In this document: in pieces, positions 29,097-32,592 of the stretch | How the letters are laid out: each line of letters begins with the position of its first letter | How positions within the stretch are numbered: the stretch's first letter is position 1 | Translations under genes and position numbers: made by a program | NCBI GenBank assembly: GCA_965248535.1 | Contig: CBDFJR010000005.1 | Location: 2,208,001-2,272,000, forward strand | Reading direction: 5' to 3' | Source: Phormidesmis sp. | Lineage (GTDB): Bacteria > Cyanobacteriota > Cyanobacteriia > Leptolyngbyales > Leptolyngbyaceae | DNA length: 64,000 bases | The notes under the pieces: model-generated | What the model was told of the DNA's origin: nothing | Database searches by the model: none | Seen by the model: only the letters and a program-made list of their open reading frames with translations

Positions 29097-29204
29097 GCTT
29101 TGATCGAGATTACGATTCAACTTTAGACTTCTGGCTAATTGCTTGCCGTCCATGATTGTGCAAGGGTAGATCATCAATTCACGATCGTTGTCGAGGAATT
29201 CGTC

Positions 29205-30350
29205 ATGTCGGAGCAGTTGCACATCCGCAAAAAAGCAGATGGGTCAGATTCAACTACTGAGTCCAGTCAGATCCAAGCGCATGTTCATCCGACTCAAGCT
29301 CGATTCCAACAGAAACCATCGAGTTCGACGGATATTGAAGATCAGGCGATGCGATCGTACCAGCATGAGACGACGGTTCTATCAATCCAGGCAAAGCATG
29401 GCACGATTACGCCCGCAGGTCAGGAACGACTAACCGTTGTGCAAGCCAAGATGGCGGATTACTGGCAGCCAAAGTTAGAGAGTGCCAATCTTGTATCTCA
29501 AAGTCCCATCCAGTGCAAACTCACCATTGGAGCGCCAGGAGATCAGTATGAACAAGAAGCCGATCGTGTTGCCGCGCAAGTCGTGAACCAGATTCATGCC
29601 CCAACTGCTGTAGAACCAACTCAAGCTCAAACTGTGCAGCGTGAGGAAACGCTAGAAGAAGACGAACTTCAGATGAAGCCAATGGTACAACTTCAGGGAA
29701 GTGGGGATGCGATCGCTGCGCCGCCAGACCTAGAAACTGCTATCAACCAGGCAAGAGAAGGTGGACAACCTCTCGATCAGACGATTCGAGAGCCGATCGA
29801 GCAGGCAATGGGGGCAGATTTTAGTGGAGTGAAGGTGCACACCGATGCTCAGGCTGACCAGTTGAATCGAGCAGTTCAGGCAAGGGCATTTACAACAGGA
29901 CAGGATGTATTCTTTCGGCAGGGGGAATATAATCCTGGGAGTCGAGGGGGGCAGGAGTTGATTGCTCACGAATTGACCCATGTGGTACAGCAGAAGGACA
30001 ATCACTTGTCAAGAAGCTCTCTCCCCTATAAATTCCATATATCTTCTATATCTCAACCTACATTACAGTGTACTTGGAAATCACCAGGATCATTGACGAC
30101 TCATTTTCAAAAGCACGTTATCAATCAGAATGACGCGGGTGTGGCTTATGCTGATGAGGCAGCGTATGAAAGTGCCGCTGATAGTATAGTAGCTAATTCA
30201 ACCTCCCTAAAAAAGCCACGTGCTGCTGGCGGGTCATACCACCTCCTACCATCCACCGGACAGTTCGTTGCAACCGATGCTGGTGGTTCAGTTATAACAA
30301 TGTTTGTTCCTAGCAGCAATCCATTGGCATACTATAATAGTCAGACATAA
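29205..30350 (+). CDS. DUF4157 (eCIS core) protein with putative C-terminal RNase toxin
   Basis: YEQEADRVA, DFSGVKVHTD, ARAFTTG, IAHELTHVVQQ; C-terminal HFQKH..ITMFVP..YY. Confidence 0.85.
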   Translation: MSEQLHIRKKADGSDSTTESSQIQAHVHPTQARFQQKPSSSTDIEDQAMRSYQHETTVLSIQAKHGTITPAGQERLTVVQAKMADYWQPKLESANLVSQSPIQCKLTIGAPGDQYEQEADRVAAQVVNQIHAPTAVEPTQAQTVQREETLEEDELQMKPMVQLQGSGDAIAAPPDLETAINQAREGGQPLDQTIREPIEQAMGADFSGVKVHTDAQADQLNRAVQARAFTTGQDVFFRQGEYNPGSRGGQELIAHELTHVVQQKDNHLSRSSLPYKFHISSISQPTLQCTWKSPGSLTTHFQKHVINQNDAGVAYADEAAYESAADSIVANSTSLKKPRAAGGSYHLLPSTGQFVATDAGGSVITMFVPSSNPLAYYNSQT

Positions 30351-30520
30351 GGAGAGTTAAACAATCTGTTTGTATCTTAGAGGTACTAGTGAGAGCAGTC
30401 AAGAGTTAATATTCTAAATAGCGTAAAAGCTTTATCATAGATCTTCTGCTAGAAAGTTTTAACAACAATCTTTCCCAGTAGTAAGCACTGAGTCAATATT
30501 TAAGGAGTTAAAAAATAACG

Positions 30521-30772
30521 ATGTATAGATGCCAAGTATGTGGTTACAACGGACTAGAAGAACCTCCTTTCGATGTTACCGGCTCACCCTCGTTTGAAAT
30601 ATGTCCTTCTTGTGGAACAGAGTTTGGTTATGATGATGCAGAGACGGATCATGCCACTTTGCGTCACAATTGGATTCAATCTGGTGCTAAGTGGTGGAGT
30701 TCATCTACCCCTCCTCCTCCTGGTTGGAATCCTGATGAACAGTTGAGAGAAGCAGGATTATCTAGCAACTGA
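30521..30772 (+). CDS. Putative Cys-rich immunity protein
   Basis: CQVCGY..EICPSCGTEFGYDD..W...G..WW..P.GW.P.EQL; AAGGAG upstream; follows toxin-like domain. Confidence 0.7.
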   Translation: MYRCQVCGYNGLEEPPFDVTGSPSFEICPSCGTEFGYDDAETDHATLRHNWIQSGAKWWSSSTPPPPGWNPDEQLREAGLSSN

Positions 30773-30791
30773 CCTGTACTGACCTCGTAGC

Positions 30792-30831
30792 GCGATCGCT
30801 CATTGCGTTTTTGTGAATGAGTGCGATCGCT
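30792..30831. repeat. 40-bp HIP1-bounded hairpin, copy 1
   Basis: GCGATCGCTCATTGCGTTTTTGTGAATGAGTGCGATCGCT; 36/40 identical to 32624-32663. Confidence 0.75.
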
Positions 30832-31122
30832 ACCAAGTAGCGCTCTTCCGGGGTTGTGGTGTTAGTGGTATAGTGCGATACGTTTGGTTAAACATTAACC
30901 ATGGACTTTCATCTGAATCTCAACCTTGGATTTCAATCGGAGAAGAACCGTTTTATTTTAGCCTAGCTGAGAAATGCAACCCCTGTGGTATCTGCGAAGA
31001 TGCGATCGCCCTTAAAAACACCCTGCGATCGCGATCAACTTTAGACTTCTGGCTAATTGCTTGCTGTCCATTCCTGTGTCAGAGTAGATCATCAATTCAC
31101 GATCGTTGTCGAGGAACTCGCC

Positions 31123-32592
31123 ATGTCGGAGCAGTTGCACATCCGCAAAAAAGCAGATGGGTCAGATTCAACTACTGAGTCCAGTCAGATCCAAGTGCAT
31201 GTTCATTCGGCTCAAGCTCGACTAGCGCAAAGCACAACTCCGCGGGGACTGCAACCGCAACGGTCGAGTTCCCCGAATGTCGAAGATCAACTGATGCGAT
31301 CGTACCAGCACGAAGAGACGATTCTCGCAATTCAGGCGAAGCACGGCACGATTTCACCTGCAGGACAGGAACGGCTCACCGTTGTCCAAGCGAAGATGAC
31401 GGATTACTGGCAGCCAAAGTTAGAGAGTGCCAATGTTGTGCCACAAATTCCCATCCAGCGCAAACTGACGATCGGGCAACCGAATGACAAGTATGAGCAA
31501 GAAGCCGATCGTGTTGCCGCCCAAGTCGTGAACCAGATTCATGCCCCAACCGCTCTAGCGCCAGCAGTGCAGCGTGAGGAAATGCCAGAAGAAGAACTCC
31601 AGATGAAGCCCATCCCGCAGCTTCAGACGAGTGGGGATGCGATCGCTGCGCCGCCAGACCTAGAAACTGCTATCAACCAGGCAAGAGGAGGTGGACAATC
31701 TCTCGATCAGACGATTCGAGAGCCGATTGAGCAGGCAATGGGAGCAGATTTTAGTGGAGTGAAGGTTCACACCGATGCTCAGGCAGACCAGTTGAATCGA
31801 TCGGTTCAGGCAAGGGCATTTACGACGGGGCAAGATGTGTTCTTTCGGCAGGGAGAATATAATCCTGGGAGTCGCGGCGGGCAGGAGTTGATTGCTCACG
31901 AACTGACCCATGTGGTGCAGCAAAATGGTGGGGGTGTGCAGCGAAGCCGTCCCACTAAACCAAATAAGGGAGATGTGTCTGATCCGGCTGTTCCCCAAAA
32001 TCAAGGTTTGATCAAGAGGAGTATGGAAAAGTTAAAGATACAAAAAGATGGTGAGGGCGAAACAGGAAGCGCTACACAAAAGTGGCGAGAAAAGTATAGT
32101 AAATACAAAAGCTTGTGGGCTGGAATTGCAGAAGGAATGGAGCTTAAAGCTGCTGCGGATCAACTGTTGGAGAACTTCAAAAAAAGGACGGACTTTAAGT
32201 ACACAGGTTTTAAGGCACCGTTTAATGGAGAGGGCACCTGTGAAACCTTGTCAGATGAGTTTGCACAAATATTAATTTATGGGTTCGGCTATAAAAATGG
32301 AGTCACGAGGGGAACAGCAAATAAGCCGATGCTGATAGGAGAATGTGAAATAATTGATAGTGATAGAAAAACAGGAAACGTGGAGAACGGAGGGGGATGG
32401 ATATTCGTGAGCCACACATGGGCGGTGGTTGGGGGAGAGGTCTACGACGTGCTGTTCAAACAAAAGGGAAGAAAGGAACATACGCTAGGAGAAAAGAAAG
32501 ACAAATATTTTATCTTTAGTGGAGAGGAATATGTCCGTAATGAAGTCAATAACCAGTACCGTCGTATGGAAGTAAAGACAAGACGGATGTAG
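31123..32592 (+). CDS. DUF4157 protein with putative transglutaminase/papain-like C-terminal effector
   Basis: N-terminal region and DUF4157 close to 29205 paralog; C-terminal GTCETL, SHTWAV, VYDVLF. Confidence 0.85.
   Translation: MSEQLHIRKKADGSDSTTESSQIQVHVHSAQARLAQSTTPRGLQPQRSSSPNVEDQLMRSYQHEETILAIQAKHGTISPAGQERLTVVQAKMTDYWQPKLESANVVPQIPIQRKLTIGQPNDKYEQEADRVAAQVVNQIHAPTALAPAVQREEMPEEELQMKPIPQLQTSGDAIAAPPDLETAINQARGGGQSLDQTIREPIEQAMGADFSGVKVHTDAQADQLNRSVQARAFTTGQDVFFRQGEYNPGSRGGQELIAHELTHVVQQNGGGVQRSRPTKPNKGDVSDPAVPQNQGLIKRSMEKLKIQKDGEGETGSATQKWREKYSKYKSLWAGIAEGMELKAAADQLLENFKKRTDFKYTGFKAPFNGEGTCETLSDEFAQILIYGFGYKNGVTRGTANKPMLIGECEIIDSDRKTGNVENGGGWIFVSHTWAVVGGEVYDVLFKQKGRKEHTLGEKKDKYFIFSGEEYVRNEVNNQYRRMEVKTRRM

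Follow-up and report, generated by a model that had tools for sequence, protein, structure and literature searches.

Two adjacent DUF4157 genes for probable cargo in a Phormidesmis contractile injection locus: a carrier with a displaced predicted zinc-ligand helix and probably exchangeable C-terminal tips

A constant N-terminal domain with an HExxH motif, followed by a variable toxin, was described in 2012 by Zhang et al. (PMC3482391), who also reported recombination of the tips, proposed autoproteolysis and placed the Glu that is the third zinc ligand on a helix after HExxH. This domain, DUF4157, is enriched in the loci and effectors of extracellular contractile injection systems (eCIS), and its role is given as unknown by Geller et al. 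(2021, PMC8213781) and Danov et al. (2024, PMC11297309). In AlgoCIS, the proteins Cgo1 and Cgo2 share a disordered N-terminus and DUF4157, differ in their C-termini and fill the tube, and Cgo1 is toxic without the need of HExxH (PMC8894135). The N-terminal disordered domain of the AlgoCIS cargo was found to be required for loading, for which DUF4157 was dispensable and in which Alg15 has a role (bioRxiv 10.64898/2026.05.27.728243). The Anabaena DUF4157 proteins Alr3311 and Alr3312 co-purify with the contractile injection system (PMC8894136). In this study, we analysed two adjacent DUF4157 genes, A and B, in a stretch of 64,000 nucleotides from the cyanobacterium Phormidesmis sp. (contig CBDFJR010000005.1, positions 2,208,001 to 2,272,000), which is referred to as the window and whose own numbering is used. 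The explanation that accounts best for the data, and which we hold with moderate confidence, is that both genes encode cargo of the eCIS tube lumen composed of a disordered leader, a permuted M48-like zinc module and an exchangeable tip. A tandem layout with a shared carrier and variable tips is already published (PMC3482391; PMC8213781; PMC8894135) and is ordinary by itself. The carrier had matches in 19 of the 41 genomes searched (the genome itself counted), several with neighbouring copies, which indicates that tandem DUF4157 genes are common. What this analysis adds is the pair of tip A and its immunity candidate, the tip B family, the mapped swap junctions and the permuted helix order.

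The two cassettes begin alike. The DNA upstream of the genes is common over 88 bp (86 aligned nucleotides at 90.7% identity), and the leader and core of A and B are 77% identical over 296 aligned residues, with DUF4157 as the best-conserved part. The Pfam family PF13699 (eCIS_core) matched both proteins (E 5e-33 to 6e-33; 113 bits against a cut-off of 22), both contain HExxHxxQ, and their similarity ends immediately past HELTHVVQQ. These results bear out a sequence-only reading of this DNA, which had described about 87 bp of shared upstream DNA, a common N-terminus, an eCIS-associated DUF4157 with HExxH and a divergence right after HELTHVVQQ. Three elements come in addition to that reading: the 83-aa gene at 30521-30772, a 44-bp hairpin with highly iterated palindrome 1 (HIP1) sites after each cassette, and a helix with an ExEAD motif upstream of DUF4157. 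The Q/S/T-rich composition of the leader fits disorder, and the modelled residues 95-103 and 138-167 had a predicted local distance difference test (pLDDT) score below 50, the model starting at residue 95. No ortholog of the exact leader (residues 1-100) was found among 40 relatives, in which the matches mostly started from residue 90 on; the comparison of strains therefore rests on public contigs. The TTG starts at 29139 and 31057, which would give longer open reading frames (ORFs), were dropped because the ATG is preceded by a ribosome-binding-like word. Promoter and terminator scans stayed at chance level, and no stable fold was predicted for the shared upstream DNA.

The sequence of the carrier departs from the canonical arrangement of its zinc ligands. 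Conservation ends at HExxHxxQQ, and no acidic position is kept past HExxH in 51 cores, so that HExxH alone cannot form a zinc site. The canonical helix with the third-ligand Glu after HExxH is missing from both A and B, although their membership in the Pfam family stands. In A, the ExEAD helix lies about 140 residues 5' of HExxH, outside the Pfam domain, as part of the motif KLTIGxPGDxYEQEADxVA (residues 105-130), which in the paralogue on contig C2 and in others follows HExxH instead. E116, E118, A119 and A123 were invariant in 120 of 120 aligned carriers, most of which had been found with a helix-containing query, and so was the catalytic Glu of HExxH. A hidden Markov model (HMM) built from 114 upstream helices only was run on 92 distinct cores and placed the helix upstream only in 69, downstream only in ten, on both sides in none and on neither side in 13 (three of them incomplete; in several, inspection by eye suggests a divergent helix downstream). 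For the 40 cores that came from the Pfam model alone, the corresponding numbers were 32, two, zero and six. The same HMM detects the downstream helices with E values of 4e-16 to 2e-3, and upstream helices occur also in a Bacteroidetes genome. A rough tree of the cores implied four changes of helix order, at least two of which are forced by well-supported branches. In the downstream-type cores (n = 16, chosen partly by eye), the first Glu of the helix was invariant, and their profile matched BepA over HExxH and NEQEADRIG with a whole-sequence E of 8e-4, the helix stretch alone not being significant. E116 corresponds to E201 of BepA, which we take to be the third zinc ligand of that protein. Taken from alignments and profiles, a circular permutation of the helix order in DUF4157 appears well supported. 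No description of it was found in the literature, where Figure 4 and the additional files of Zhang et al. could bear on the point; the words 'permutation' and 'permuted' are absent from the accessible text of that paper (PMC3482391).

An AlphaFold model of residues 95-288 has a helix with pLDDT 74-90 and a core above 90 with a disordered linker between them; its predicted template modelling (pTM) score was 0.68, with about 120 of the 194 residues ordered. The core of the model aligned to the VgrG2b effector domain 6H56 (Z 7.1, root-mean-square deviation (rmsd) 3.0, 91 residues), although only to residues 848-947, stopping short of the E983 helix. Foldseek returned nothing at E <=0.001 for the carrier model, sequence searches of the PDB with the carrier gave no clear relative, and the mutual information between helix and core (75 effective sequences) was phylogenetic noise only. 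We infer the docking of the helix on the core from the pLDDT, the pTM and the aligned ranges, and catalysis likewise; on this evidence, the upstream helix probably completes the zinc site with the DUF4157 core. The spacing between helix and core ranged from about 120 to 300 residues across the cores, and in three carriers (L031 3780-4853, L032 3592-4935 and P0003) the linker contains a variable number of QREALPEEEELQMK-type repeats. In five tipless carriers (L005, L007, L019, L026 and P0190), the DUF4157 protein ends 15-45 residues past HExxH; such proteins possibly act in trans on a neighbouring effector.

Past the core, the tips vary. The 106 related tips (104 from carrier homologues together with A and B) fell into 86 clusters, and neither tip A nor tip B has a further match anywhere in its own genome. 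The polymorphic layout with a conserved N-terminus, a variable C-terminus and swappable effectors, which had been proposed from the sequence, is supported by this catalogue, by the tip families and the content of the locus, and by an alternative tip in slot A of public contigs. Tips A and B lack HIP1 sites, as was read earlier, with no GCGATCGC octamer and no CGATCG hexamer in either. The absence of the octamer alone was dropped as a sign of foreign origin since 45-50% of equal-sized genome windows have no strict octamer; windows without the hexamer make up only 4-6%, and the GC content of the tips (0.42-0.43 compared to 0.50) lies at the 2.5th and 5.7th percentile of genome windows. A foreign origin of the tips is thus moderately supported by their composition. 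The 44-bp hairpin has two copies in the genome, one after each of these cassettes.

The public contigs came from two runs, X1 and X2, of one study, while a third run, X3, was left out because of its patchy cover. In X2, a contig of 1451 nt at depth 14 matches the spacer 30788-31064 (277 nt, one mismatch), which, except for the hairpin, has no second copy in the genome, and joins it to 29994, meaning that about 1.1 kb of other DNA replaces 793 bp of tip A and the immunity gene. X1 has the same joint at 29994 (depth 2.7) and, unlike X2, a second one that links 31928 to 32625 (depth 3.3). Slot A of a related strain thus seems to be occupied by another tip. The left junctions lie at, or a few bases from, the end of the HExxHxxQQ codons, and the right ones 4 bp before, and within, the HIP1 octamer of the hairpin. 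A loose end at 29993 was dropped as a further alternative tip, as it probably stems from a contig of another organism that matches only 29957-29993. HIP1 sites in homology arms were reported to raise integration in Synechococcus (bioRxiv 10.1101/2024.09.10.611283). Exchange of the tips likely proceeds through homologous recombination, in which the conserved 3' end of DUF4157 would serve as the left arm and the HIP1 hairpin as the right arm; all of the predicted zinc ligands would then be encoded 5' of the junction, and a swap would leave the carrier intact. That genes A and B are eCIS cargo with swappable tips is, in our view, very probable.

The earlier reading had also pointed to a QC/QR/QK motif just before each tip. 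The motif is present, as LQC in A (287-289) and as both VQR (272) and IQK (306) in B, and a [VIL]Q[RKC]-type motif occurs within 60 aa past the core in 92 of the 106 related tips compared to 13.3 in shuffles. The same type recurs several times within each leader, however, and it is therefore not specific for the tips.

Tip A resembles known toxins in its sequence. As a single sequence, it matched PDB entry 8EY4_A only weakly (E 0.076), while a profile of 30 sequences matched the same entry with E 5e-18 over 73 positions and colicin D with E 0.007. The equivalents of H300 and H304 are invariant in all 30 aligned tip-A-like sequences. The database labels 8EY4 only as 'PT-VENN domain-containing protein'; we take it to be the CdiA-CT of E. 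coli O32:H37. A table in PMC11630599 assigns CdiA-CT O32:H37 to the RNases (COG5529). Homologues of the 83-aa protein were collected from 80 loci of many phyla, 76 of them with at least 400 nt upstream, and in 45 of the 80 a tip-A-like C-terminal domain is encoded directly 5' of the homologue; the HMM used for the tips started from tip A plus two homologues and was then iterated on the same 80 loci. The carriers of these domains differ: some are long proteins without DUF4157, one of which has a HINT-like motif, and in other cases the domain is a standalone ORF. Taking the profile matches and the pairing together, tip A is predicted to be an RNase and the small zinc-ribbon protein is likely the immunity protein that shields the producer; the whole assignment, a BECR RNase toxin with its immunity gene, can be made with fair confidence from homology. 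The 83-aa protein is 92% identical to a Nostoc protein of the same context, and the unit of carrier, tip A and immunity gene is present in two Nostoc eCIS loci. To one of these loci, the DNA identity is a mosaic of 52% in the leader, 81% in the core, 88% in the linker, 64% in the tip and 95% in the immunity gene. A profile of the immunity protein had no clear relative in the PDB (best E 0.055), the ESM Atlas placed the small ORF in unnamed clusters only (up to 2441 members), and no NCBIfam family exceeded its cut-off with A, B or the 83-aa protein. Standalone tip-A-like ORFs of 100-140 aa lie directly before a CxxC gene in other genomes, often of Acidobacteria (L065, L068, L074, L075, L077-L079, L081, L082, L085-L088, L092 and others); these pairs are possibly a toxin-antitoxin form or orphan cassettes.

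Tip B belongs to a family with 87 relatives among representatives at 50% identity, which mostly carry eCIS-type leaders. Its triad is kept nearly throughout the 88 aligned sequences (C373 in 85, H431 in 87 and D442 in 87), and the model, with a pLDDT of 93, matched TglA (Z 7.4, rmsd 3.5, 108 residues), PeiW (Z 6.9) and LapG (Z 6.9), with the top eight VIA-align matches all from the same superfamily. Judged by the conserved triad and the modelled fold, a Cys-His-Asp enzyme is highly probable, with a predicted activity as a protease, deamidase or transglutaminase. Transglutaminase tips on DUF4157 carriers are already known (Zhang et al. 2012, PMC3482391; Danov et al. 2024, PMC11297309). No Pfam or NCBIfam family matched tip B above its cut-off, a sequence search of the PDB gave no clear relative, Foldseek found nothing at E <=0.001 for the model (best E 0.04), and the ESM Atlas offered one weak lead (0.87). 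A strong DUF4157 core was found in just 17 of the 87 relatives, to which Pfam searches of 60 of them added four weak ones. No immunity gene follows gene B, the next ORF being the convergent DUF2442 gene, and the substrate of tip B is thus likely absent from the cytoplasm of the producer. Most antibacterial eCIS toxins lack an adjoining immunity gene according to Geller et al. (PMC8213781).

The following mechanism would connect these parts. The leader would be recognised by the AAA+ ATPase encoded next to the cassettes, which is the likely cargo loader of this eCIS locus judging by its domains and position, and the ATPase would thread the unfolded cargo into the tube by its leader, by analogy with AlgoCIS. 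Once ejected, the chain would fold again and bring the upstream ExEAD helix onto the DUF4157 core; E116, H255 and H259 would hold the zinc, and E256 would be catalytic. The zinc module may then cut the linker behind itself, perhaps at [VIL]Q[RKC], and release the tip. Of all parts of the mechanism, we trust this one least, and we regard self-cleavage of the carrier as tentative and on balance doubtful. Tip A would cut RNA in target bacteria, while the 83-aa protein would protect the producer. A more general proposal, which we consider unlikely, is that most DUF4157 cargo contains a two-part permuted M48-type protease, with its third-ligand helix concealed in the supposedly disordered leader, that is inactive when stretched in the tube, assembles on refolding and cuts at [VIL]Q[RK] motifs to release the tip. 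The tips could then be exchanged without restriction from the HExxHxxQQ codons to a HIP1 site since all of the ligands are encoded upstream. If this were true, the Pfam domain would be only a part of the enzyme, and the published deletions of the N-terminal domain and of DUF4157 might each have cut into it.

Several observations weigh against the favoured explanation. DUF4157 is dispensable for loading in AlgoCIS, and the toxicity of Cgo1 is independent of HExxH. Among the tip-B homologues, 70 of 87 have no strong DUF4157 core, and 26 of the 53 DUF4157-less ones that were tested keep [VIL]Q[RKCM] near the tip (six expected); processing in cis is therefore no general requirement, and the motif may be something other than a cleavage site. 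The searches that supplied 52 of the 92 cores were not neutral to the helix, and two of 113 close carrier homologues (P0092 and P0096) have the helix both before and after the core; by their sequences, they are candidate intermediates of a permutation by duplication. The fold Z scores of tip B (7.4) and the core (7.1) are both below 8, in a range that is reached by common arrangements. As to the exchange of tips, the joints have just 30 nt on the DUF4157 side, both runs belong to one study, and the replacing DNA itself was not seen; the spacer in X2 has a depth of 14x compared to 29x for tip A, so the array there differs and was rearranged further, and the two hairpins are homologous, which means that the right junctions are not independent. 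Finally, the eCIS genes are dispersed over the chromosome, a second Pvc16-like gene (26462-27108) is in two ORFs (Pvc16_N positions 1-67 and 84-170), likely by a frameshift, and the second eCIS of the genome, on contig C2, looks intact.

The strongest alternative accepts the permuted module but not its proteolysis. In this case, DUF4157 would be a zinc clasp or chaperone that aids refolding, holds the tip inactive or docks on the spike, and the tips would act while still attached. We assign it a substantial chance that falls only a little short of an even one. The HExxH-independent toxicity of Cgo1, the loading of AlgoCIS without DUF4157 together with the suggested refolding, and the scarcity of DUF4157 among the tip-B homologues all agree with it, as does a standalone Streptomyces DUF4157 protein that binds the N-terminus of an effector. 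It does not explain, however, why the catalytic Glu is invariant in all 120 aligned carriers or why the third-ligand Glu is kept in either helix position, and the closest fold, the VgrG2b effector domain 6H56, requires its HExxH for toxicity (PMC6899460).

It is also conceivable, if rather unlikely, that the upstream ExEAD helix has a separate function within the leader, such as binding of the ATPase or loading, and resembles the M48 helix without contributing to a zinc site in cis. Four tip-B homologues without a detected core (P0011, P0014, P0017 and P0044) do have the helix, and 13 of the 92 cores have no detected one. A motif of this kind would not be expected to alternate almost exclusively between the upstream and downstream position (both in 0 of 92), and the helix HMM matched just six of 940 core-less ORFs, two of which are in loci cut from the window's own genes; furthermore, the helix is ordered in the model and homologous to the ligand helix of BepA.

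The surroundings of the cassettes bear on a third and improbable alternative, in which they are relics of a decayed, divided eCIS that are no longer delivered or act inside the producer, with tip A and its immunity protein as a toxin-antitoxin pair or lysis aid. The window is part of a HIP1-rich cyanobacterial contig with 50% GC and contains genes for Pvc16, sheath, gp19 tubes, the AAA ATPase, a CIS tube protein and a VgrG-like protein. The genes for gp25, baseplate J and P2-I are on the same contig, about 100 kb away from the eCIS genes of the window, and the system seems to be divided into 21734-51487 and G000:C5:2345754-2350782 (gp25, baseplate J, P2-I and DUF4159), about 100 kb from the sheath and VgrG. 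This distance of the baseplate genes, the Pvc16 gene in two ORFs and an adjoining DUF4160 fragment would suit decay, and the many standalone tip-A/immunity pairs of 100-140 aa ORFs elsewhere and the proposal that the Anabaena system acts on the producer's own cells would suit an internal role. Against this, both cargo genes, the ATPase, the sheath, the tubes and the VgrG-like gene are open reading frames, and the strains differ in the tip of slot A as for an arsenal in use. The sequence-only reading had suggested DUF4157 as a loading or self-processing carrier. A role of the domain itself as the loading signal for the tube is very unlikely: eCIS loci and effectors are strongly enriched in DUF4157, and no other part of A and B is as well conserved, but AlgoCIS loads without DUF4157 while the deletion of its N-terminal domain abolishes loading, and the tip-B family, with a strong core in 17 of 87 homologues, is also found with leaders and no DUF4157.

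Other genes near the cassettes were noted as well (the coordinates of the main features are collected in Table 1). The DUF2442 gene (32619-33114, minus strand) is convergent to gene B and preceded by just the 3' part of a DUF4160 gene, and the two are a probable toxin-antitoxin remnant; the region 32619-33114 had a high summed depth in the public contigs, so copies exist elsewhere in those samples. Inside the eCIS locus, 33271-35232 encodes an FHA domain and, at the C-terminus, a domain that resembles methylglyoxal synthase below the cut-off; the long acidic linker, of low complexity, contains a 144-bp duplication. Between the cargo and the tube and VgrG genes, 35577-42817 encodes an Ig-like/WD40 protein, an Ig-like protein, an FHA protein and a Ser/Thr kinase, and these genes possibly exert signalling control of the eCIS; the Nostoc loci L031 and L032 also have an FHA-like gene nearby. 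After VgrG, a short ORF at 52103-52342 looks by eye like an insertion sequence transposase. On contig C2, the second eCIS comes with a separate ATPase and the third DUF4157 gene of the genome; at G000:C2:517800-547950 (L161 and L162), the gene for the DUF4157 protein, which has the canonical helix order (a downstream-type core at C2:544314-546476), precedes one for a reprolysin-like metallopeptidase that has a leader and no DUF4157.

Table 1. Coordinates of the features of the two cassettes and the adjoining ATPase gene in the window
Feature	Position	Strand	Remarks
Pvc15-type AAA+ ATPase (WHD and AAA)	27024..29096	+	Pfam AAA E 9e-25, WHD E 2e-18; directly 5' of the cassettes
Shared upstream DNA, copy A	29117..29204	+	GAGGAA ribosome-binding-like word before ATG
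Cargo gene A, 381 aa	29205..30350	+	leader, ExEAD helix, linker, DUF4157 core, short linker, BECR tip
Upstream strand and helix KLTIG..YEQEADRVA, residues 105-130	29517..29594	+	E116 is the predicted third zinc ligand
DUF4157 core of A	29769..29993	+	ends in HELTHVVQQ (H255, E256, H259); 3' end is the left swap point, joint 29994
Tip A, colicin D/CdiA-CT-like BECR domain (predicted)	30066..30347	+	H300, H304, Y321, R339, T365 and Y376 conserved
83-aa CxxC..CxxCGTEFGYD protein	30521..30772	+	immunity candidate; weak Cys_rich_CPCC match, E 0.023
44-bp imperfect palindrome with HIP1 arms	30788..30831	.	right swap point of slot A; hairpin z -2.2
Shared upstream DNA, copy B	31035..31122	+	starts 2 bp past the HIP1 octamer 31025-31032
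Cargo gene B, 489 aa	31123..32592	+	same carrier as A; ExEAD helix at about residues 114-139, HExxH 259-263
Tip B, unnamed transglutaminase/papain-like domain (predicted)	32035..32589	+	C373, H431, D442 (also N419)
Second HIP1 hairpin copy	32620..32663	.	overlaps the convergent DUF2442 ORF at its 3' end; possibly the right swap point of slot B

DUF4157 marks eCIS effectors more often than any other domain, and the question of its role dates from 2012. Because the predicted third zinc ligand lies outside the Pfam domain, a construct of about residues 100-270 with mutants of E116 and E256 would suit the question of whether the module is a protease, and the same point bears on where loading sequences are cut for engineered delivery. 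Tip A and its zinc-ribbon partner are a clear candidate pair, which points to bacterial targets for a cyanobacterial eCIS, and the mapped junctions offer a natural case for HIP1-assisted recombination.

Compared with the described systems, A and B are closest to the PVC-metallopeptidase toxins of Zhang et al. (2012), that is, the DUF4157/eCIS_core effectors, with which they share the HExxH domain, the variable toxin and the eCIS neighbourhood; they differ in that the predicted ligand helix of A, B and most of the sampled cores is 120-260 residues upstream, outside the Pfam domain. Like Cgo1 and Cgo2 of AlgoCIS and Alr3311 and Alr3312 of Anabaena, they occur as two DUF4157 genes within one CIS cluster. 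Compared with Cgo1 and Cgo2, they have different tips, an immunity candidate adjoining tip A and strain-level swapping with mapped junctions. In contrast to 8EY4 and colicin D, tip A rides on an eCIS carrier and has H346 and I364 where most members of the family have Arg, and its substrate may therefore differ. The order of Cys, His and Asp and the modelled fold of tip B resemble those of TglA, PeiW, LapG, the Tox-TGase of Zhang et al. (2012) and EAT14 of Danov et al. (2024). The zinc module resembles M48 BepA and VgrG2b in its HExxH and a predicted third Glu ligand on a separate helix, but their ligand helix follows HExxH, whereas in A and B it precedes it across a disordered linker of 45-70 residues.

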